A program made the translations under genes and the position numbers. The notes below the pieces were generated by a model. That model did no database searches and was not told the origin of the DNA. It was given only the letters and a program-made list of their open reading frames with translations. This document shows positions 1-9,689 of a DNA stretch of 9,689 nucleotides, one piece after another. Position 1 is the first letter of the stretch, and every line of letters starts with the position of its first letter. Source of the DNA: a virus (lineage: Duplodnaviria > Heunggongvirae > Uroviricota > Caudoviricetes); IMG/VR virus record IMGVR_UViG_3300026224_000016; one strand, given 5' to 3'.

Positions 1-191
1 GCTGGAAAGGCTGGGCCATATTCCTCCGGCAGAAGCAGAAAAAGCTTATTATGCTTCCATCGGAAATACTGATCTGGCAGCCTGAGTTCACAGATAAAAC
101 ACTCTCCAGGAAACCCGGGGCGGTTCAGTTGTTCCGCCTGTCGCAACATTTCCTGTGCCTGTTTACGTAATTGTTCAGGGGTAAAAGTCAT
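1..191 (-). CDS. hypothetical protein, 5' portion only (gene runs off left edge of window)
   Basis: ATG at 191-189 on the minus strand, 11 nt downstream of the helicase stop; my own translation is open to position 1 (MTFTPEQLRKQAQEMLRQAEQLNRPGFPGECFICELRLPDQYFRWKHNKLFLLLPEEYGPAFP...). No clear Shine-Dalgarno and no family recognised. Not in the ORF track because it is truncated by the window edge. Confidence 0.35.
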   Translation of the reverse strand, partial: MTFTPEQLRKQAQEMLRQAEQLNRPGFPGECFICELRLPDQYFRWKHNKLFLLLPEEYGPAFP

Positions 192-202
192 TGTCTGGTT
201 GT

Positions 203-1594
203 TCAAAAGAAACGCTCCATCTTACTGCTGTCAGTTCGTTTGTTGCTGTATCTGCGCGGCTGAGGCTGCTGCATTGGGGTGGAAAGAATCTGTGCGCTTT
301 CCTGATCCACAGGCAGAAAATGTCCGTTATAAAAACGCCGATAAATCGTCCCCAGAGAACCGTTACGTTGTTTCGTGATATTGATTTCTGCGATGCCCCT
401 GGCCTGCGTATCCGGGTTGTACACTTCATCCCTGTAAAGCATCAGAATGATGTCTGCATCCGCCTCTATTTCTCCGGAATTTTTCAGGTCTGAGTTCATG
501 GGGCGTTTATTGGGCCTGGACTCCACACCGCGGGAGAGCTGACTCAGCGCAATCAACGGAAAACCACCGGATTTTGCCAGGCCTTTAAGCCCCTTTGAGA
601 TTTCACCAACGGCAAGGTCATGACGCCCTGTGGTTCGGGTTTTTATCAGCCCGAGATAATCAACCACCACCAGCGCCGTTTCCGGATGTTTAATCAGGTG
701 ATGTTTCGTTGTTGCGCATATCTCATCAATGGTCAGGTTCGCCTGGTCCACCATCCAGATATTGCGCCCGGTCATCCGCCCCACTCCTTGTGAGAAACGT
801 GCCCAGTCTTCGTCTTCAAAGTGAGTGACAGATTTCAGGCGTGATACCGGCATTCCTCCAGCCGCAGATACCATGCGTTCACCAATCTGGATGTTCGCCA
901 TTTCCATTGTGAACAGAAGAACACCATGCCCCTGCTCAGTCACCTTGTCGATGATATCCAGCGCCAGTTCGGTTTTGCCCATCGAAGGACGTGCAGCAAT
1001 AAATACCAGGTCGCCAGGCTCCATGCCGCCCGTTTTTGCGTCCAGTTCATCAATACCGGTCATCAACGTCCTGGATTTCTCCAGCCCCTGATTCCGGCAT
1101 TCAACACGCTCAACCACTTCCGGAAGCACATCATCAATATGTACCGGCTGAATAACGCCCTTTTCCGTCGACAATGAGGCCATCATGTTCTGCGCATCCT
1201 TCAGAGCATCTTCAGCTGCTTCACAGGTATGCGCATCACGTAATTTCTGCAGCGCCTCATTCAGTGTTTTTTCTGCATCACGCAATGCGGCATTACGCCG
1301 CAACGCCGTAACATAGTGCTCCAGTGACGACTTCACCCAGGTTTTGCGCCCGGTATCAGTAATCACCGGGGCAAGTTCCGGCATCTCATTACACAACAGC
1401 ACAGGGTCAATCACGCCGGACACACGGGCCTGTCTGCAGATGCCTGTGTAGATATCCCGGTACGGTCGTACAGAAAAAACGTCCGCCGGTAGTGTGGCCA
1501 GAATATCCATCACTTCAGGATCTGCCCCTCGCAGAAAAAACGCGCCAATGACAGCGCCTTCCAGGTCATCGTTACGCCAGACAGGAGAAGTCAT
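203..1594 (-). CDS. DnaB-like replicative DNA helicase (463 aa)
   Basis: Walker A FIAARPSMGKTELALD and Walker B ALVVVDYLGLIK match the DnaB family RecA-like core. Start moved from the track's 1633 to the ATG at 1594, which has an SD (GGAGGTG, 7 nt spacer) and overlaps the upstream stop as ATGA at 1591-1594. Confidence 0.9.
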   Translation of the reverse strand: MTSPVWRNDDLEGAVIGAFFLRGADPEVMDILATLPADVFSVRPYRDIYTGICRQARVSGVIDPVLLCNEMPELAPVITDTGRKTWVKSSLEHYVTALRRNAALRDAEKTLNEALQKLRDAHTCEAAEDALKDAQNMMASLSTEKGVIQPVHIDDVLPEVVERVECRNQGLEKSRTLMTGIDELDAKTGGMEPGDLVFIAARPSMGKTELALDIIDKVTEQGHGVLLFTMEMANIQIGERMVSAAGGMPVSRLKSVTHFEDEDWARFSQGVGRMTGRNIWMVDQANLTIDEICATTKHHLIKHPETALVVVDYLGLIKTRTTGRHDLAVGEISKGLKGLAKSGGFPLIALSQLSRGVESRPNKRPMNSDLKNSGEIEADADIILMLYRDEVYNPDTQARGIAEINITKQRNGSLGTIYRRFYNGHFLPVDQESAQILSTPMQQPQPRRYSNKRTDSSKMERFF

Positions 1595-2481
1595 GCTGCC
1601 ACACCTCCGATATGTGCACGGTAACTTTCCCAACCAAACACCAGGCAGTTACGCCCACCATCAGTAACGCGATCCACAATCCGTTCACCAATGGACTCCT
1701 TAAGTTGGTCAAATGTCAGATTACTAATCAAAATTGTCGGTAAAACGCTTTCGTAACGTGCATTGATGATTTCCTGCAGGATGGTTATCTCTGTTGGCGT
1801 ACCGAACTGCACACCAACCTCATCGATGATGAGCAGGTCCAGCGATACAAAATGGTCAATAACTTCATCTTCAGTGCGTTCAGAATTGTGACGCCAGGTA
1901 TTTTTCACAGCGCGGGTCAGTCGCATGACATCCGTAATTTCGACAGTCGCCAGGTGGTGGCGAATAATATTTTTTGCCATTGATACAGCCAGGTGATTTT
2001 TCCCGGTACCGCAATTGCCAATCATGATCATGCTGGTACCCGCAGCAAGACACTTCTCCCATGAACTGGCATAGCGCCGACAAGCCTCAAGATTTCTCTG
2101 TGCGTCAGCATTCACAGCCTGGTAGTTCTCAAACTCGCAGTCCTGGAAGCGGCGGGCAATACCAGCTCTGTCAAGTAATTCATGAACTTTCAGGATGCGT
2201 AACGCCTCCTGTACCTGATCCAGTTCATTCGCAATGCAGGTCGGGCAACCAGACACCCGTTTGATGGTTTCCCCACGAACATCTGGCCCTTTCAACACCA
2301 GACGTGTGTATTTCCCGTGTTTCTCACACTCAGCAGTTTCCTCGCTTGTCAGCCAGTGTTCACAGCGCCACGGACGCTTCCCGGCACGGGCAAACTGCAT
2401 CTCCTCCTCCAGTTCCGCCCTGCGGTTGAGCAATTGCGCTTTATCGTGTTGTGCGTAGTGTTTTTTTAACTGTTCAAACAT
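1591..2481 (-). CDS. DnaC/IstB-like AAA+ helicase loader ATPase (296 aa) with N-terminal Cys-rich segment
   Basis: Walker A GNCGTGKNHLA (DnaC-type GTGKNHLA signature) and Walker B LLIIDEVG. N-terminal CEHW...CEKHG...CPTC cluster suggests a zinc-binding module. SD GAGGTG upstream of ATG 2481; stop overlaps helicase start. Confidence 0.85.
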   Translation of the reverse strand: MFEQLKKHYAQHDKAQLLNRRAELEEEMQFARAGKRPWRCEHWLTSEETAECEKHGKYTRLVLKGPDVRGETIKRVSGCPTCIANELDQVQEALRILKVHELLDRAGIARRFQDCEFENYQAVNADAQRNLEACRRYASSWEKCLAAGTSMIMIGNCGTGKNHLAVSMAKNIIRHHLATVEITDVMRLTRAVKNTWRHNSERTEDEVIDHFVSLDLLIIDEVGVQFGTPTEITILQEIINARYESVLPTILISNLTFDQLKESIGERIVDRVTDGGRNCLVFGWESYRAHIGGVAA

Positions 2482-2500
2482 TGTTCATCACCTCGAAAAA

Positions 2501-3478
2501 TCACCAGTTGAAGTTCGTTGAACCGTAGTCCTGCTCACTGAATCCCGAGATCGGGAGGCCGGTAGTTCGCCCACCTCCGGGAGCGGCTGGCTGTTGCCAG
2601 GATTCCTCGAAATGGCGATCGGGTCCAAAGAACGTCGCGGCCTGCTTCACGAACTGTGTGCCTGTATTTCCTGTAGCACGTACCCAGGCGGCATACCGCT
2701 TCACACCATCAAGCATGGTCTCCGGTTTTATTCCCTCCCTGATACGGGCTTTCCAGGCTTTGAAGGCTGCTGACTTGGAATTGCCACCAGCACGTTTGGG
2801 ATATTCCTGCCAGGCCTGTTCAAATTCCGGTGAATATTCCTGTCGGGCAGAACGCGCTGGTGCAGACGCGTCAGCGGATGCGCCAATAGTGTTTTTAGTC
2901 TCCGTTGTAATCTCTGTAGTAATCTCTGTATTTGTATCAACATTCGGCGTATCCCCTGTTCCGTTATGACGTTGGGGGGTGTTCCGTTTTAACGTAATAG
3001 CTGTATCGCTGATTGCGTTATTGCTGTTACTTTCTGGCGAAACAGAAGAAGGAGTAGTAATGGCAGCAATTGCCTGTGGGTTGATCCCGACAAACAAAAT
3101 ATTGCTGCATTTCACACCATCGAGCATTTCCACCGTGCGTAAATCCAGGGAAATAAACCCGGCATCACGAAGGCGCTTCAACGCATCCGCGGTTTCCCTT
3201 TTCCCGAAACCAAACTGCTCAGCAAACGCCTGATAACTTCTTTGCAGCTTGTCCCCCTGAAAACGCTTGCGATATCCCAGCAAAGCCCCGGTATGCTCAT
3301 CCCTGACTTCTGTCGGGCGGTACCAGTAAACGATCTCTGAGAGCAGGGCGATAGCGGTCGCATCCGGACGACCACTGGGTAGCCGAATATGTTTCCACCA
3401 GTTCGCTGGTGTGACATTGCCGGAAATATTAATTTGACCAATAGCTATAACTTCCGGTGTGGGGGCGTAACGACTCAT
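2501..3478 (-). CDS. phage replication initiation protein (O-like replisome organiser, 325 aa)
   Basis: Sits immediately upstream of the loader and helicase genes. Two-domain layout with a low-complexity linker (NTEITTEITTETK) encoded by tandem DNA repeats, as in lambda O where ori lies in the linker-coding region. Start ATG 3478 overlaps the upstream stop (ATGA). Family call is from architecture, not a search. Confidence 0.7.
   Translation of the reverse strand: MSRYAPTPEVIAIGQINISGNVTPANWWKHIRLPSGRPDATAIALLSEIVYWYRPTEVRDEHTGALLGYRKRFQGDKLQRSYQAFAEQFGFGKRETADALKRLRDAGFISLDLRTVEMLDGVKCSNILFVGINPQAIAAITTPSSVSPESNSNNAISDTAITLKRNTPQRHNGTGDTPNVDTNTEITTEITTETKNTIGASADASAPARSARQEYSPEFEQAWQEYPKRAGGNSKSAAFKAWKARIREGIKPETMLDGVKRYAAWVRATGNTGTQFVKQAATFFGPDRHFEESWQQPAAPGGGRTTGLPISGFSEQDYGSTNFNW
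2907..2930. repeat. perfect 12-bp tandem direct repeat GTAATCTCTGTA x2 inside the initiator gene; candidate origin iterons
   Basis: Read directly: 2907-2918 and 2919-2930 are identical, followed by a partial third unit (TTTGTATC). A second imperfect repeat pair GTTCCGTTATGACGTT (2958-2973) and GTTCCGTTTTAACGTA (2981-2996) lies just downstream, 13/16 identical. Confidence 0.6.
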
Positions 3479-3774
3479 ACAGCCTCCTTACGCGGCATAA
3501 CAATGGTGTAACCCCGGGCAGGCTGGAGCCGGGCTTTTGCATCAATAGTGAGCGTTGCAATTTTTCGGATACGCAGATACCCTGCCCTTTCCAGGGTCAG
3601 GGTTTCTCTGAACATTGCCTGTTTTGAACAGCAACAAAAATCGGCAAGGACCTGGTGATCAATAACCCTCTCACCTTCACCGTCTGAAGAACCCGACATC
3701 AAAACACGCAACATAATCAGGCGCTGAATCGGATTATCGAAAACACTTCCGCATACAAACTGAAAACAGTTCAC
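3475..3774 (-). CDS. hypothetical protein (99 aa), possible small DNA-binding regulator
   Basis: GTG start at 3774 preceded by SD GGGAGG with a 6-nt spacer. Start overlaps the upstream stop (GTGA) and its stop overlaps the initiator start (ATGA at 3475-3478). A possible helix-turn-helix segment (QVLADF...ERAGYLRIRK) is by eye only. Confidence 0.55.
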   Translation of the reverse strand: MNCFQFVCGSVFDNPIQRLIMLRVLMSGSSDGEGERVIDHQVLADFCCCSKQAMFRETLTLERAGYLRIRKIATLTIDAKARLQPARGYTIVMPRKEAV

Positions 3775-3995
3775 ACGGCACCTCCCAGGCGTTTAAACAT
3801 TTTTCCGGACTGAAACGCCACCAGTGGGTAACTGATGGTGTAGTTACGCCCCAGTAATTCACACACGACTTTCTGGCTTTCGGTACTGACCAGGCAAACC
3901 CGCAGAACATGGCCGTTGCTGGTGGCAAACCACTGCCCCACACGGGGGCAACGGTTGTATCGGTGATACAGGGAATTAACGACGCGGCGAATCAT
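3771..3995 (-). CDS. hypothetical protein (74 aa)
   Basis: ATG at 3995 overlaps the stop of the upstream 220-aa gene (ATGA at 3992-3995), with a GGGAAG SD-like element 7 nt upstream. The track's longer start at 4010 has no SD. No family recognised. Confidence 0.5.
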   Translation of the reverse strand: MIRRVVNSLYHRYNRCPRVGQWFATSNGHVLRVCLVSTESQKVVCELLGRNYTISYPLVAFQSGKMFKRLGGAV

Positions 3996-4654
3996 GGGCG
4001 CACTTCCCATTGATTACGGCGGAAAGCAGTGTGATTCAGGCTGGTTTCAGCCTCATGGAATGCTTCAATGCAGCTCTCGTAGTACCGCATTGTGCGCAGA
4101 CTTAACCCAAGCTGAAGCATCATCAGACCATCAAGGGTGATGTAATAACCACGCAGGGAATCGCCATACACGTGGTAAGTACCCGGAATGAAATTACGGG
4201 AGAAGAATTCACGTGAGCAGTTCAGATACTCGATTTTGTCGACGATGTTCTGGTGCATGCGCTTAAAGTGGCAGGCAACATGCAGGGAGAAAATAACAGC
4301 TTTGCCGTTGACGACTTCGATTTTCAGGTATGGGGAAGTTGGGACTGTAGCCATGATGGCAGCCTCCGTATGCAATGGATAACTTCCACCACCGGAAACG
4401 CCAATTTCACTGGTGGTGAACTGAACGGGGTTGGCGTAACCGGCGCATACGGAAACCGGCGCATCTTTCGATGCCCCCGCCCAGCCCACCATAATCTGGA
4501 TGTGAGCAAATGCGGACGATAAAAAAGACGCTGGCGCGTCGTATATCGCCGTATGCAATTCCAGGACGCCAATCCCGGCACCCGCTTTATAAGGTGCCAG
4601 AACAGTGTAACGTCCCGAAATTGCAGAATCAATATTTAGGCTTGAAACATTCAT
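3992..4654 (-). CDS. hypothetical protein (220 aa)
   Basis: Long ORF with protein-like composition, co-oriented with and coupled into the replication operon. Weak or absent SD upstream of ATG 4654. No motif recognised. Confidence 0.6.
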   Translation of the reverse strand: MNVSSLNIDSAISGRYTVLAPYKAGAGIGVLELHTAIYDAPASFLSSAFAHIQIMVGWAGASKDAPVSVCAGYANPVQFTTSEIGVSGGGSYPLHTEAAIMATVPTSPYLKIEVVNGKAVIFSLHVACHFKRMHQNIVDKIEYLNCSREFFSRNFIPGTYHVYGDSLRGYYITLDGLMMLQLGLSLRTMRYYESCIEAFHEAETSLNHTAFRRNQWEVRP

Positions 4655-4732
4655 ATGCTTACTGGTATTTTTGTTGACGTTCTTGGATTCTTGGGCCTGC
4701 TTTATGCAGTTGCCTGTATCAACGTTGAGCGA

Positions 4733-4757
4733 GCCGGGTTACTACCCGGCTTTTTTT
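4733..4757 (+). terminator. rho-independent terminator-like hairpin, oriented for plus-strand transcripts
   Basis: GC-rich stem GCCGGGT (4733-4739) / ACCCGGC (4744-4750), loop TACT, followed by TTTTTTT (4751-4757). On the minus strand the hairpin is preceded by an A-tract and followed by non-U-rich sequence, so polarity favours the plus strand although it sits right at the Rha gene stop. Confidence 0.5.
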
Positions 4758-5464
4758 CACCGCTGCCAACCAATAACCTGAAATAACCCCATTTTCGGGT
4801 GATACCAGCGAGTCCCTCGCGGTTCTGCTTCCTCCATAACCCGATAAAAAGCAGCCATAAACGGTTCCACAGCAACAATTGCGCGACGTGACAACAATCC
4901 GTCCGGCGTCATGAACTCATGGGTGTCTGTAGGAATTTGATAGGCGTTCACCAGATTGCGGCATTTATCATCTGACAAACCGGTTTTTGCTTTCAGTTGG
5001 CGATATCCGGCATAGCCCTCACGAATGGTGCCCTTTTTGATTTGCTCAACTGTTTCGGCAACATGGCTGACTTTTTCTTCCACCTGAGTGATCCGTTTCT
5101 GCTGGCGAACAGCTTCAAGAGCCATCGCTGCAACCATTTCGATTTCGCTCATTGGCTTACGGATCTGTTCTTCCAGTTCGCGCCAGCGATCTACCAGGCG
5201 AGCAGTGAATTCAGGACAGAGCTGTGCGACGACAATGATGCTGTCGCGCTTACCTTGTTCTCCTTCAAACAGGTAATGCTCATATTGAACTTTAAAACCT
5301 AAGTTATTGATTCTTTCGGAAACCTCAATTTGAGGAGACCGGACAACGCCACCTTTGGCTAATGTTTCAATAGTGCGTTTCACATTGTCATGACGTTTAC
5401 CCACCAGCTCTGCGATTTCAACGCTGGTCATGGATACTTTGTCGTTAAAAATTGCAGCGTTCAT
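4757..5464 (-). CDS. rha: Rha-family phage regulatory protein / antirepressor-like (235 aa)
   Basis: N-terminal segment MTSVEIAELVGKRHDNVKRTIETL matches the characteristic Rha-family N-terminal motif. Start set to ATG 5464 (SD AAAGAGG about 7 nt upstream) rather than the track's 5488. Confidence 0.75.
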   Translation of the reverse strand: MNAAIFNDKVSMTSVEIAELVGKRHDNVKRTIETLAKGGVVRSPQIEVSERINNLGFKVQYEHYLFEGEQGKRDSIIVVAQLCPEFTARLVDRWRELEEQIRKPMSEIEMVAAMALEAVRQQKRITQVEEKVSHVAETVEQIKKGTIREGYAGYRQLKAKTGLSDDKCRNLVNAYQIPTDTHEFMTPDGLLSRRAIVAVEPFMAAFYRVMEEAEPRGTRWYHPKMGLFQVIGWQR

Positions 5465-5635
5465 TGTTGCCTCTTTACGAAAAACCATGATTAACCTCTA
5501 GCTTTCCCCGTCTTTTCCGCACTTCTTGTACGGTGATATTATTCAGTGCCGGATGCTTACCCGTGTCCGGCGCACGACCACACGTAGCCGCGTGTTGGTC
5601 TCCATTTTCAATTCAGCTCTCAATGGAGGATAAAA

Positions 5636-5881
5636 ATGTCAAATACCCAACATCTAAAAGCGGCGGATCCCGTTTTACGCCTCAATGCACTTGAAACGGT
5701 TGTTCGGGCGATGCTGTCGAGCATGACACCCGAGCAAATAAACAAAGCGCGATTGATTGCTACTCGTGGTGCCCAATTAGCAGCCCTAGATCCATTGCTC
5801 ACTCCTGCGAATCGCGAAGATGTAGAGCACATTCAGGGGATGGTTGATTATTTATTCGCCCATATTCCTGATCAGATTTGA
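5636..5881 (+). CDS. hypothetical protein (81 aa), opposite in orientation to the surrounding early operon
   Basis: Near-ideal SD GGAGGA (5625-5630) 5 nt before ATG 5636. Helix-rich, Ala/Leu-rich soluble-looking product. A hairpin GCCGCC/GGCGGC (5914-5936) followed by a T-rich stretch lies about 30 nt after the stop. No family recognised. Confidence 0.5.
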   Translation: MSNTQHLKAADPVLRLNALETVVRAMLSSMTPEQINKARLIATRGAQLAALDPLLTPANREDVEHIQGMVDYLFAHIPDQI

Positions 5882-5962
5882 TTCTTTGAACCATAATTTC
5901 AGCGATACGAATGGCCGCCGCTTCGAGCCTGGCGGCTTCTTTATCTGCATAAGAGCTACCCA

Positions 5963-6208
5963 TCACTTCTCGTCCTCTGTGTGCGCTAAGCTTGGGTGTG
6001 GAAAAAGCTCTGGTAGGTCTGGACGAAATTCATACGCTTGGATCTTTCCGTCGACAGCTGCAACCAATAACGGCACAAATTCTGGTGAAATCTTGTTCTT
6101 GCAGTTCAACCAATCGCAGACTGTTGACTGGGCCTTTCCGCATCGCTTGGCTAAGGCTTGCTGACTTCCAAGAATCTCAATAGCTTTCTCTATGGCTTTA
6201 TGTTTCAT
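5963..6208 (-). CDS. cro: Cro-like HTH transcriptional regulator (81 aa)
   Basis: Small HTH protein (GSQQALAKRCGKAQSTVCDWLN) transcribed divergently from the cI-like repressor. Start set to ATG 6208 with SD AGGAGA 7 nt upstream; the track's start at 6259 would lie upstream of the predicted promoter. Confidence 0.75.
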   Translation of the reverse strand: MKHKAIEKAIEILGSQQALAKRCGKAQSTVCDWLNCKNKISPEFVPLLVAAVDGKIQAYEFRPDLPELFPHPSLAHTEDEK

Positions 6209-6230
6209 AATCGCATCTCCTATTGAACGC

Positions 6231-6259
6231 ATAATAACAACAGGAAAAGCGATATTCAA
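6231..6259 (-). promoter_or_regulatory. candidate PR-like sigma70 promoter driving cro and the early operon
   Basis: Read on the minus strand: -35 TTGAAT (plus coordinates 6259-6254), 17-nt spacer, -10 TATTAT (6236-6231), placing the transcript start about 15-25 nt upstream of the cro ATG. Confidence 0.5.
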
Positions 6260-6277
6260 CGTTAAACCTAGAACATT

Positions 6278-6293
6278 TATCGGAAAGCCGATA
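6278..6293. promoter_or_regulatory. 16-bp palindrome TATCGGAAAGCCGATA in the cro-cI intergenic region; candidate operator
   Basis: Inverted repeat TATCGG-N4-CCGATA read directly, lying between the divergent cro and cI starts, where lambdoid OR operators occur. Confidence 0.45.
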
Positions 6294-6327
6294 GACTAGC
6301 CAGGATAGAGAGGGGAGGAAAATCGCA

Positions 6328-7020
6328 ATGACATTTTCAGAACGACTTGATTTAGCTATGCGCAACGCAAAATTTACGCAAGGTAGGCTGGCCAAAGAAG
6401 TGGGTATGGCTCAGTCCAGTGTCAATCAACTACTTAACAAAGCCAACGGTTCCAGAAAAACAGTCGAAATAGCAAAAGTTTTGGGCGTTAACCCGGAATG
6501 GCTCGCATCGGGTGTTGGCCCAATGGAAATCGTGACCTCTGCAGACTCACACCAAATACGTAACATTTCTGAAGATTGGGTTACTGATTCGTATGTCGTG
6601 GATGTTTTAGACATCAGATATAGTTGCGGACCTGGTAGTTATAACTCTGATTTTCCTGACATTGTCAGATCTATAGCGATAGAACCAGGATACGCATCAA
6701 GAGTTTTTGGCGGCAGGCCAGCATCAGCAATCAAAGCAATAAACGCCCACGGCGACAGTATGAAAGGCACAATAGACCCTGAAGACTTGGTATTTGTAGA
6801 TGTATCAGTTCGCACATTTAATGGTGATGGTATATACGCCTTTACATACTCTGGAACATCGCACATCAAAAGACTTCAAAAAATCAAAGATACTCTAACG
6901 GTGATATCTGACAACCCAGCTTACAAGGATTGGGCTATCGAACCGGAAGACTTCGAACAACTTCACATTGACGGAAAAGTAATTGTCAGTTGGCCCATGA
7001 CACTACACCGTTTTGCATAA
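6328..7020 (+). CDS. cI: CI-like prophage repressor: N-terminal XRE-type HTH plus C-terminal LexA/S24 autopeptidase domain (230 aa)
   Basis: HTH FTQGRLAKEVGMAQSSVNQLLN. S24 catalytic signatures: Ser in AHGDSMKG and Lys in HIKRLQK. SD GGAGG 9 nt before ATG 6328. Divergent from cro. Confidence 0.9.
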   Translation: MTFSERLDLAMRNAKFTQGRLAKEVGMAQSSVNQLLNKANGSRKTVEIAKVLGVNPEWLASGVGPMEIVTSADSHQIRNISEDWVTDSYVVDVLDIRYSCGPGSYNSDFPDIVRSIAIEPGYASRVFGGRPASAIKAINAHGDSMKGTIDPEDLVFVDVSVRTFNGDGIYAFTYSGTSHIKRLQKIKDTLTVISDNPAYKDWAIEPEDFEQLHIDGKVIVSWPMTLHRFA

Positions 7021-7038
7021 GCAAAAATCATTTAACCC

Positions 7039-7064
7039 GCCCACTCTTAAGTGGGCTTTTTTTT
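7039..7064 (+). terminator. rho-independent terminator downstream of cI
   Basis: Stem GCCCACT (7039-7045) / AGTGGGC (7050-7056), loop CTTA, followed by eight T residues (7057-7064), 19 nt after the cI stop. Confidence 0.8.
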
Positions 7065-7085
7065 GGAAAAAAATCGATAAACCGA

Positions 7086-7114
7086 TTGACAGACAAAATC
7101 GGCAAACCTATTAT
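7086..7114 (+). promoter_or_regulatory. sigma70-like promoter for the accessory cassette, with flanking repeats
   Basis: -35 TTGACA (7086-7091), 17-nt spacer, -10 TATTAT (7109-7114). Direct repeats AAATCGATAAACC (7071-7083) and AAATCGGCAAACC (7096-7108) flank the -35, and CCGATT (7082-7087) / AATCGG (7096-7101) form an inverted pair. Confidence 0.55.
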
Positions 7115-7163
7115 CATGGCATAGGTATCGAACTCACCAAAGCAATTATAGAGGATGAGAAAA

Positions 7164-7661
7164 ATGTCATCGTATATGGGGTTACCAACAAATCAGCACG
7201 ATGCTCTTGAGAATATTCAACTCTTAGTAGGGGCTGGTGCACTACTGTATAGCAGCAATAATCCTGAGTTAATTGAACTTGCCAGCTCCATCCTGGCTGT
7301 AACTCAAAAATACAGCCTCACCGCGTCGCGTTTATGCAAACAAAATTTAGCTATTAATTCCCAGAATCGGATTCGCACCCAACGCGAAGCCTGCGGCTTA
7401 ACAACCGCCGAACTCGCCAGGCTGCTCGATCTCGATGAAGAAATTATCATCCAGTGGGAGAGCGGAGAGTATGAACCAACTATCAGTATGCTTATCCCAC
7501 TGGCAAATATTCTTGGCTGCGATCCGATGTGGCTGTTAACTGGCGAAGTTACTCCTCCGGAGCAACCAAAAAGTGAGGAGCAGCAACACCATGACGCATC
7601 TCAACAAGTTTGCTCCTTATCTCGCGAAGCTCTTCTACGGAAGAACCAATACCAATGGTGA
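7164..7661 (+). CDS. HTH (XRE/Cro-C1-type) DNA-binding protein with an uncharacterised N-terminal domain (165 aa)
   Basis: C-terminal half has a classic XRE HTH (LTTAELARLLDLDEEIIIQWESGEYEPTISMLIPLANILGCDPMWLLTG). The roughly 75-aa N-terminal region matches nothing I recognise. Start chosen at ATG 7164 (SD GAGGA, 8-nt spacer). Confidence 0.7.
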   Translation: MSSYMGLPTNQHDALENIQLLVGAGALLYSSNNPELIELASSILAVTQKYSLTASRLCKQNLAINSQNRIRTQREACGLTTAELARLLDLDEEIIIQWESGEYEPTISMLIPLANILGCDPMWLLTGEVTPPEQPKSEEQQHHDASQQVCSLSREALLRKNQYQW

Positions 7662-7789
7662 CATAATCGCCGCTTCGCCCCTCAAGGTACATGCGAACAT
7701 TTTTATCAATCATTGCGGAAACAGTCTCAATATGAAAACACTTCTGAGACTCGCTATATAGCAGAACATATAAGTCAGCTGAGGAAGCC

Positions 7790-8155
7790 ATGAAAAAGTT
7801 CGAAAACATAACTGTTCTCCATGTTGATGACTTTGATTATACAAACCCGGAACCTCTCCCGGAGGTTGTAAAGGCAATAGATGTTGCCGATATAGTGATT
7901 AGAGGAAAGAGAATTGTCAAAAACAGGCTCGCATGCACTTCAGGAGCAATGACAAAAACAACCTCACAACAAGATGATTATGAAGGCATTTGTCTGGAGC
8001 CGGACTCATTTGCGGTAAATGTTTATCATTTATTGCATGCAACACAGGTATTACATATGTCCAGTAATCACGAAACAAAAACACTTGGCAGCGAAATTCT
8101 GAATTTTGCATGTGAATATGCAAAAGCTGCTGCCGAAAAAGAATTAGCGCAATAA
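7790..8155 (+). CDS. hypothetical protein (121 aa)
   Basis: ORF with SD GAGGAAG immediately upstream of ATG 7790, co-oriented with the HTH gene. No motif recognised. Confidence 0.6.
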   Translation: MKKFENITVLHVDDFDYTNPEPLPEVVKAIDVADIVIRGKRIVKNRLACTSGAMTKTTSQQDDYEGICLEPDSFAVNVYHLLHATQVLHMSSNHETKTLGSEILNFACEYAKAAAEKELAQ

Positions 8156-8353
8156 CAACAAATATGCCATGAACGTTTATTACGGTTTTATCGCCGGGGA
8201 TTGTTGCAACCTTTATTCATAGAGGTAACTCAGTTATGACTTTCCTGAAAAATAAGGCATCGTATAAAACTGCCTGCCTCATTGCACAACATGGAGATTC
8301 TTATCTTCATATAGCCAACCTGTATTTGCGCAAAGCATATGGGAGATAAATAA

Positions 8354-8542
8354 ATGAAAGAAAAACAACAGAACATAACACATGAAAAAGTAAGAGTGTT
8401 GTTGACCATTGAAAATGGGAAAGTGATTTACTCAAAACATCTGTCGGATGATGAATTCGTTGGCTGCATGGATACATTTCTGTGGATGGTAAAAAGAGCG
8501 GGTTACACGATTATTCCACCAGCAAAGGAACAAACATTATGA
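8354..8542 (+). CDS. hypothetical small protein (62 aa), translationally coupled to the downstream gene
   Basis: SD GGGAGA (8341-8346) 7 nt before ATG 8354. Its stop overlaps the next gene's start as ATGA at 8539-8542. Charged, soluble-looking. Confidence 0.55.
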   Translation: MKEKQQNITHEKVRVLLTIENGKVIYSKHLSDDEFVGCMDTFLWMVKRAGYTIIPPAKEQTL

Positions 8543-9120
8543 ATTATTCAGAGTTCCGACCAGAAGTTACGCCACATGGCATAAAAATTGGCAATACAAC
8601 CATTGATTATGTTGAGGCCGTACAGCGACTTAATGATGGTGAATACGATTATCCAAACTCACACGGTTTAAGAATCATGCAATGTATTGCTGAAGCCGAT
8701 GATGCAGGGTTGCTGGGACGATTTTCAGTCGATATGAAAGTTGCTCAATGGCGATGGCTGTATGTGACTACGTTTATAAATGAAGAGAAAGACAAGAACG
8801 GTACCGTTGATATCCCTAACGATAATGGAACTACAGATCGCGCAGTTATTTACAAGGGGAAACATGGTTGCCTGAGTATCTACCCCGGACCACTTCGCAT
8901 TGCCCTGCAAAACCATGTCGAATGGGGATTTATTGAAAAATATGGCGAAGCTGAAGGCATGGGGCGAGTTCTGTTTCTCTATCAAAAAATGCTCATCGCA
9001 GATCCTGATAATGGTTTCATTATCTCTGCTATGGGGCGCGAAGGGCTTGAACTCCTTCTGGATGAAATGATTCACGATCTGAATACTCATGGTATGCCAG
9101 AAGCGCCAGTGACACATTAA
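8539..9120 (+). CDS. hypothetical protein (193 aa)
   Basis: Start set to ATG 8539 (SD AAGGAA, ATGA overlap with upstream stop) rather than the track's 8482. No nucleotide-binding or catalytic motif recognised by eye. Confidence 0.65.
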   Translation: MNYSEFRPEVTPHGIKIGNTTIDYVEAVQRLNDGEYDYPNSHGLRIMQCIAEADDAGLLGRFSVDMKVAQWRWLYVTTFINEEKDKNGTVDIPNDNGTTDRAVIYKGKHGCLSIYPGPLRIALQNHVEWGFIEKYGEAEGMGRVLFLYQKMLIADPDNGFIISAMGREGLELLLDEMIHDLNTHGMPEAPVTH

Positions 9121-9127
9121 ATATTAA

Positions 9128-9152
9128 GAAGAATATAATTCTTCCGTTTTTT
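9128..9152 (+). terminator. terminator-like hairpin closing the accessory cassette
   Basis: Perfect inverted repeat GAAGAAT (9128-9134) / ATTCTTC (9138-9144), loop ATA, then CG and TTTTTT (9147-9152). The stem is AT-rich, so strength is uncertain. Confidence 0.4.
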
Positions 9153-9165
9153 ACTAACCGTTTAT

Positions 9166-9273
9166 ATGAAAAGCAACCGTGAATTAAGCAGAGTAAAACT
9201 GATTTTAATCCTTGCCACAGTGCTGACACTAACTGAAATCATTATTCTCTTTATTGCGCTGTCAGTCGGTTAA
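9166..9273 (+). CDS. candidate small hydrophobic single-pass membrane peptide (35 aa)
   Basis: My own translation: MKSNRELSRVKLILILATVLTLTEIIILFIALSVG, a charged N-terminus followed by one hydrophobic helix. No SD, and below the track's length cutoff, so this is tentative. Confidence 0.25.
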   Translation: MKSNRELSRVKLILILATVLTLTEIIILFIALSVG

Positions 9274-9296
9274 AAATATCGGGATACCACAGACCA

Positions 9297-9485
9297 ATGA
9301 GACTGTATTTCACAATAGTAATTTTACTGGCAATTATCGCATGCATTTACGGATTACTCGTTCCGTTCCTTATATCCATGAAGGATACGATAGCAGTTAT
9401 TTCTGGCTTTGCACTGGCGTTTCTGACCCCGCCCTGCATTTATGCCATTTACAAGGGTCTTTCTTTCACTAAGGATAAAAGATGA
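9297..9485 (+). CDS. small membrane protein, two predicted transmembrane helices (62 aa)
   Basis: Strongly hydrophobic product (IVILLAIIACIYGLLVPFLI and AVISGFALAFLTPPCIYAIY). Stop overlaps the downstream lipoprotein start (ATGA at 9482-9485). Weak SD. Confidence 0.45.
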   Translation: MRLYFTIVILLAIIACIYGLLVPFLISMKDTIAVISGFALAFLTPPCIYAIYKGLSFTKDKR

Positions 9486-9562
9486 AAAAAATTATTTTTG
9501 CTTTAGCCATTGTTCTGCCGACTATTGGCCTTGTCGGTTGCGATCGCGTTGAACCAGGTAAT
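9482..9562 (+). pseudogene. small lipoprotein gene, 5' portion only, interrupted by an IS903-group insertion
   Basis: SD AAGGA then ATG 9482. Product MKKIIFALAIVLPTIGLVGC-DRVEPGN has a signal peptide with lipobox LVGC. The reading frame runs into the IS inverted repeat at 9563 and stops at an IS-derived TAA (9575-9577). Confidence 0.5.
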
Positions 9563-9689
9563 GGCTTTGTTGAATAAATCGAACTTTTGCTGAGTTGAAG
9601 GATCAGATCACGCATCCTCCCGACAACACAGACCATTCCGTGGCAAAGCAAAAGTTCAGAATCACCAACTGGTCCACCTACAACAAAGC
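9563..9689 (+). mobile_element. IS903-group (IS5 family) insertion sequence, left end; element continues beyond the window
   Basis: Starts with the terminal inverted repeat GGCTTTGTTGAATAAATCG. The following about 125 bp differ at only 4 positions from the IS903 left end as I recall it from Tn903 cassettes. Identification is from memory, not alignment. Confidence 0.8.
9640..9689 (+). CDS. IS903-family transposase, N-terminal 16 codons (partial)
   Basis: GTG 9640 followed by AKQKFRITNWSTYNK, matching the conserved N-terminus of IS903/IS102-type transposases (KQKFKITNWSTYNKALINRG). In-frame TTG at 9595 is an alternative start. Confidence 0.55.
   Translation, partial: MAKQKFRITNWSTYNK

Follow-up and report, generated by a model that had tools for sequence, protein, structure and literature searches.

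The closest described counterpart of the gene considered here is L05 of the Stx2e-converting phage phiP27 (AJ298298.1, positions 3501-4328), an intact gene located downstream of a cI-like repressor gene and upstream of xis/int. L05 belongs to a family of SPFH (Band_7) proteins represented in 737 phage records. L05 and several of its homologues carry the annotation "(putative) serine protease"; in Pfam, the one domain found is SPFH/Band_7, and the "serine protease" name looks like a propagated misannotation. The SPFH/Band_7 domain is common to the L05-type proteins, to the FtsH modulators HflK and HflC and to other bacterial SPFH proteins. The similarity to HflK is weak, with PDB 7vhq (E = 4e-4) as the sole PDB sequence match, and the hflC and hflK models return E-values of 4e-6 to 8e-4. 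Identity as an HflK or HflC orthologue was rejected because the scores obtained with these models (18.5-25.9 bits) do not reach the NCBIfam equivalog cut-offs (134-660 bits). The lipoprotein anchor would imply a periplasmic location of the SPFH domain, as in HflK/C. In contrast to HflK/C, the L05-type protein is phage-borne, and its predicted anchor is a lipid-modified Cys, not a transmembrane helix. A literature search for a characterised prophage SPFH lipoprotein returned one lead only, PM0222 of a lambda-like prophage of Pasteurella multocida, an HflK/C-like virulence factor (PMC9872710); no homology between PM0222 and L05 is claimed.

A second point of comparison is provided by the SPFH-NfeD operons, which resemble the present locus in that a gene for a small membrane protein is coupled to an SPFH gene. 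The partner found here, a protein of 62 aa, differs in that it has no NfeD domain, is encoded upstream of the SPFH gene and falls well short of the NfeD proteins in length. Membership in the SPFH-NfeD operons was rejected, as the search of the partner against Pfam gave no match at E <= 0.01, NfeD included. The third described system is the IS102 (pSC101)/IS903 (Tn903) group of insertion sequences, members of which usually transpose by simple insertion and duplicate 9 bp of the target.

At the locus described here, an orthologue of L05 occupies the same place as in phiP27 and is cut after codon 27 by an insertion sequence of this third group. The window (the whole stretch of DNA that was analysed, 9,689 nt) covers the immunity and early region of a lambdoid prophage that resembles phiP27, and positions 7703-9563 of the window align with phiP27 DNA at 95.0% identity, the alignment ending at 9563. 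The minus strand carries DnaB-like and IstB/DnaC-like replication genes and Rha/Ash genes, while the plus strand carries, past the gene for an HTH protein, several small phage ORFs followed by the 62-aa gene and the SPFH gene (Table 1). In intact relatives, the pair is followed on its 3' side by DUF5406, DUF4222, excisionase and integrase genes and then by yecE(DUF72)/yecN/cmoA. The interval between the repressor gene and the pair also contains conserved phage ORFs matching phrog_1515 and phrog_5451 at 8482-9120 (+) and 7790-8155 (+), which correspond to L06 and L08 of phiP27, and a 121-aa protein encoded in the same interval has a faint match to a CII-like regulator (phrog_4836, E = 3e-4). 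The gap immediately upstream of the 62-aa gene holds a 35-aa ORF (MKSNRELSRVKLILILATVLTLTEIIILFIALSVG, 9166-9273, plus strand) with one strongly hydrophobic segment. The related RefSeq genomes do not annotate this ORF, it matches nothing in Pfam or PHROGs, and the small membrane peptide that it would encode may or may not be real.

Table 1. Positions in the window of the features discussed in the text
Feature	Position	Strand	Basis
cI-like S24 repressor gene	6328-7020	+	
HTH protein gene	7155-7661	+	
Intact gene for the SPFH lipoprotein's 62-aa partner, a protein of two hydrophobic helices	9297-9485	+	ORF list; hydropathy; phrog_1130
Surviving 27 native codons of the phiP27 L05-type SPFH lipoprotein gene	9482-9562	+	100% identical to intact alleles up to 9562/9563
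Chimeric 31-aa ORF (27 native codons, IS-derived G-F-V-E, stop)	9482-9577	+	Sequence; gene calls on 4 assembled contigs
Predicted left copy of the 9-bp target duplication, CCAGGTAAT	9554-9562	.	Position relative to the terminal inverted repeat
IS102/IS903-group (IS5-family) insertion sequence, first 127 nt	9563-9689	+	Runs off the window and contig end
Left 18-bp terminal inverted repeat of the IS, GGCTTTGTTGAATAAATC	9563-9580	+	Found once, as an exact match, in the window
Start of the transposase ORF (GTG 9640), VAKQKFRITNWSTYNK...	9640-9689	+	Sequence; comparison with a full copy

The interrupted gene and its break point

The nature of the interrupted gene is apparent from its uninterrupted alleles. 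The initial annotation had described a small lipoprotein gene and had proposed a comparison with related genomes as a way of recovering the full protein. This comparison does recover it, and the protein is not small: intact alleles encode a 275-aa lipoprotein in which a Band_7/SPFH domain (PF01145) extends over residues 22-208 (E = 1.8e-30; 106.8 bits versus a cut-off of 23.6), and 27 of the 275 codons are left in the window. The product encoded in the window keeps the first 6 residues of the SPFH domain only, and so it is not an SPFH protein. The intact protein is assigned in PHROGs to phrog_200, "lipoprotein". The product of the E. coli allele whose DNA is identical to that of the window as far as the junction shows 100% identity to phiP27 L05, and the annotations in E. 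coli chromosomes that match the native side are "hypothetical protein" and "SPFH domain-containing protein".

The reading frame that begins with the ATG at 9482 encodes MKKIIFALAIVLPTIGLVGC DRVEPGN and continues with GGC TTT GTT GAA TAA, the stop codon occupying 9575-9577. The native side is 100% identical in DNA to intact E. coli alleles from 9290, with the identity ending at 9563. These alleles read GAA CCA GGT AAT up to the break and GTT GGC ATC AAG after it, with the protein continuing as GTTGGCATC... to 275 aa. The G at 9563 is common to the native codon GTT and to the IS terminus, and because it fits either, the break point is fixed only to within 1 nt. The presumed target CCAGGTAAT at 9554-9562 occurs once in the window; if the G at 9563 is native, the duplication would instead read CAGGTAATG.

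The N-terminal part of the protein carries the features of a bacterial lipoprotein. A lipobox, LVGC, with its Cys at residue 20, is preceded by MKK and a hydrophobic core, and a PS51257-like pattern matches. This signature ([LVI][ASTVI][GAS]C after a basic and hydrophobic N-terminus) is kept in 80 of 80 relatives, and lipidation is predicted. Both the 27 native codons and the lipobox had been reported in the initial annotation and are seen in the sequence. After lipoprotein processing, the 31-aa product would leave a 12-residue lipopeptide, CDRVEPGNGFVE. In E. coli, an Asp at the +2 position leads to retention in the inner membrane, and the Asp at +2 in the window allele suggests such retention for this protein. 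The homologue from Erwinia phage vB_EamP-S6 has Tyr at +2 after the lipobox Cys, in contrast to the Asp of the E. coli alleles, and the +2 residue is therefore not conserved across the family.

A further allele of E. coli (GCA_047262165.1, near position 1530; equivalent to window 9555-9556) has a 2-bp CA deletion inside the same 9 bp, CCAGGTAAT. This deletion puts the signal peptide out of frame, and the product is annotated as a 260-aa protein (P0004) starting MALSVAIALNGNVG. Coincidence, a sequencing error and an excision footprint are all conceivable explanations of the CA deletion. Partial or truncated products make up much of the 786-member cluster that the 260-aa P0004 represents.

The insertion sequence beginning at 9563

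The sequence from 9563 onward is the end of an insertion sequence. The 18-bp repeat GGCTTTGTTGAATAAATC is identical to both termini of the 1057-bp copies in E. coli AR_0019 and pSC101, and it is the sole match in the window even when up to 3 mismatches are allowed, with 0.03 expected by chance. The 127 nt of the window, extended by 13 bases of the parent contig to 140 nt, have 0 mismatches to IS102 of pSC101 (NC_002056.1, 6916-7972) and 0 mismatches to the 1057-bp copy in AR_0019. These results bear out the earlier assignment of the terminal repeat to the IS903 group and also supply the alignment to reference IS102 that had been suggested as a check on it. The visible part, 127 of about 1057 nt in the window, is without any difference to IS102.

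The element is widespread. The 140-nt IS end is 100% identical to approximately 590 records in complete E. coli genomes, and matches to the IS stretch number at least 5000 among plasmid records and 2778 among E. coli records. The annotation at the matched features is IS5-family transposase or "IS5-like element IS903 family" transposase, and the number of places per E. coli genome with an IS903-group element has a median of 2 and reaches 47.

The AR_0019 copy provides the full-length reference. It has perfect 18-bp terminal repeats, is flanked by a 9-bp duplication, TCTCTTGGA, and contains an ORF of 307 aa that begins with GTG at IS offset 78 and matches NF033579 (IS5-family transposase) at E = 1.1e-105. 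The window holds only the first 17 codons of this transposase, counted from GTG 9640, and these are identical to the reference copy; a longer version predicted by PGAP begins at the in-frame TTG 9595. Since the transposase starts on the plus strand, the IS is co-oriented with the interrupted gene.

The full copies in AR_0019 and pSC101 differ from each other at 47 of 1057 positions, yet both match the visible 140 nt perfectly. Consequently, 140 nt cannot separate IS102, IS903, IS903B or another isoform, and the finest assignment that the visible sequence allows is "IS102/IS903 group". The IS903 end of Tn903, in the form that we presume from cloning vectors, has 4 mismatches in the 140 nt, and this comparison serves as a lead and not as a test.

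A probable simple insertion and its alternatives

Taken together with the usual behaviour of the group, the junction is best read as a simple insertion of an IS102/IS903-group element between codons 27 and 28 of the L05 orthologue, a reading that is likely rather than proven. In this mechanism, the element would have entered a phiP27-like prophage in a host of the E. coli type, with its IS5-family DDE transposase making a 9-bp staggered cut at CCAGGTAAT. Signal peptide, lipobox and 7 mature residues would have been left behind, joined to 4 codons contributed by the IS. The remainder of the element, the duplicated CCAGGTAAT and the 3' part of the gene would lie beyond the end of the contig, as expected from IS903 biology and from the reference copy. 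The right junction would then consist of the right end of the IS, ...GATTTATTCAACAAAGCC, followed by CCAGGTAAT GTTGGCATCAAGG.

The alternative that survives best is that the IS end marks the boundary of a rearrangement, such as an adjacent deletion, a recombination between IS copies or the end of a composite transposon, with the SPFH 3' part and possibly xis/int deleted or moved elsewhere. This is unlikely, though it deserves to be weighed, as a single IS end is observable and IS903-group elements are present in multiple copies that can serve as substrates for recombination. Copies without a flanking duplication do exist: IS102 of pSC101 has no flanking 9-bp direct repeat, its flanks being ...ACTGAAAGT and GGGTGTGGT..., and it is a reminder that IS-bounded rearrangements occur. 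The expected right junction, modelled from the AR_0019 copy and the intact allele, is also absent from the collections that were searched, with 0 matches in genome_contigs, JGI metagenome_contigs and IMG/VR, the IMG/VR scan having also been run with a variable gap to accommodate the 1-nt ambiguity. However, the source assemblies lie outside these collections, and so this absence carries little weight. The left junction behaves similarly in an exact-pattern scan, with 0 matches in genome_contigs and JGI metagenome_contigs, and was found again in IMG/VR only.

Two further points argue against a rearrangement. First, simple insertion with a duplicated target is established for this IS group and is exemplified by the AR_0019 copy. 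Second, some records fit a retained 3' part of the gene. In the modelled right junction, the SPFH frame meets a stop codon inside the IS, and there is no ATG, GTG or TTG before a GTG at codon 44 and an ATG at codon 67. A 209-aa product of the matching allele that starts at Met67 is on record on 8 Logan/ENA contigs that are not tied to the sample of the window, and this product fits a 3' part that persists downstream of some N-terminal disruption.

Simple insertion also has to be distinguished from the case in which a genuine small lipoprotein gene ends at this point and the IS lies just downstream. The ORF at 9482-9577 is complete, with start, lipobox and stop, and is called by gene callers, which is what such a gene would look like. 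However, the last 4 codons and the stop of the 31-aa ORF are IS sequence, and the phiP27 and E. coli alleles, together with all 80 IMG/VR loci examined, read through into an intact SPFH protein of 275/276 aa. These 80 loci were gathered with the 209-aa Met67 product as query, and none is from isolate 2547132272. A natural end of the ORF in related genomes, the outcome that the initial annotation had named as fatal to its proposal, is excluded because 80 of 80 relatives are intact, and a small gene ending here is accordingly extremely improbable. One IMG/VR locus that appeared to be a contig-edge candidate was rejected, as it is an intact allele starting at a contig end. Among complete E. coli genomes, the IS junction is found in 0 of 5426.

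The end of the window itself has a technical origin. The window corresponds to positions 13-9701 of the 9714-bp MEGAHIT contig k141_5596 (ENA ERZ27241745), which stops exactly 140 nt (k-1, with k = 141) into the IS, at contig positions 9575-9714, as is expected of a de Bruijn assembler that meets a repeat. The window thus ends where a repeat broke the assembly, and this edge is no biological boundary; the k-1 stop is also independent evidence that the repeated sequence starts at 9563. The record IMGVR_UViG_2547132272_000017, derived from an isolate and 9491 bp long, matches window 101-9591 at 100% identity, contains this junction as well and stops after 29 nt of the IS. A cultured isolate and several metagenome assemblies thus contain this prophage lineage with the knockout. 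A mis-join of the prophage contig with an IS from another replicon or organism would be a natural worry with short-read metagenome assembly (MEGAHIT k141) and an IS highly repeated in Enterobacterales, but it can hardly account for a junction that recurs in two independent assemblies with different break points, for a 31-aa fusion ORF called on 4 contigs in all, or for a break at the exact first base of an IS terminal repeat, a hallmark of transposition rather than of random mis-joining.

Consequences and the two-gene module

As a result of the insertion, the SPFH domain is physically separated from the signal peptide and lipobox, while the 62-aa gene and its stop codon are untouched. Because the SPFH domain is cut off from its export and lipidation signal, the allele is a null allele, in agreement with the inactivation that had been proposed initially. 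Any product restarted downstream would lack a signal peptide and would be expected to stay in the cytoplasm, unable to function as a periplasmic scaffold. The 31-aa "lipoprotein" ORF is best annotated as a fragment of a pseudogene, that of a phiP27 L05-type SPFH lipoprotein, and not as a small gene. Polar effects on the genes up to xis/int, or effects of IS-borne promoters, are speculation. Scans for promoters and terminators around the module and the intact gene gave results at chance level, and they offer no basis for claims about promoters or polarity.

The interrupted gene does not stand alone. The upstream 62-aa protein has two hydrophobic segments and is assigned to phrog_1130, "membrane protein" (E = 2.5e-23). 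The TGA of its gene overlaps the ATG of the lipoprotein gene, forming ATGA at 9482-9485, and the translational arrangement is shared by relatives: among the 80 IMG/VR loci, the ATGA start is present in 80 and the 62-aa upstream ORF in 77. The coupling to an upstream two-helix membrane protein noted in the initial annotation is thus confirmed. What it described more widely as a coupled membrane-protein cluster amounts to an accessory module of two genes, situated in the early-left arm of a prophage of the phiP27 type.

A similar arrangement occurs in Erwinia phage vB_EamP-S6, a virulent, N4-like phage in which a membrane-protein gene and an SPFH-lipoprotein gene overlap at positions 1013-2034. 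The 67-aa membrane protein of this phage is 28% identical to the 62-aa partner, while the lipoprotein is 70% identical. The presence of the pair in a virulent phage indicates that the module is not specific to lysogeny. An annotated 347-aa ORF (P0002, 8 members), equivalent to window 9297-9562 and the sequence that follows, contains a two-helix membrane protein fused in frame to an SPFH lipoprotein; alternatively, this fusion may be a mere 1-nt change at the ATGA overlap. Conservation of the pair and the 347-aa fusion ORF suggest that the 62-aa protein and the SPFH lipoprotein work together.

The role that the two proteins may have is less clear from these comparisons. The initial annotation had raised the possibility of an exclusion lipoprotein. 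Neither the intact SPFH protein nor the 62-aa partner matches a model in PADLOC-DB v2, and Pfam finds only Band_7 in the former. Membership in a known exclusion or defence family was rejected, as there is no homology in PADLOC-DB v2 or Pfam and the PHROGs labels, "lipoprotein" and "membrane protein", carry no function. An exclusion role is unsupported by any of the results, while one of a kind not yet described is conceivable. A broader proposal, which we consider quite doubtful, is that the module, found from temperate phiP27-like prophages to virulent N4-like Erwinia phages, forms a phage membrane scaffold. Such a scaffold might be, for example, an HflK/C-like modulator of FtsH, and hence of lysogeny control of the CII/CIII type, or an inner-membrane barrier to superinfecting DNA.

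For the prophage itself, the most likely biological meaning of the insertion is neutral decay of an accessory gene. Both the IS102/IS903-group element and phiP27 L05 were already known, and knockout of an accessory prophage gene by an IS is commonplace. The event is a textbook insertional inactivation by one of the commonest enterobacterial insertion sequences, and it matters little beyond annotation. The phiP27 L05 family, which is widespread, mislabelled as "serine protease" in some records and functionally uncharacterised, is more interesting than the insertion. The only mildly interesting thread that runs from this locus is the uncharacterised module of a membrane protein and an SPFH lipoprotein, for which the IS allele is a natural knockout; if the module does act as a membrane scaffold, this allele would show that it is dispensable for prophage maintenance.
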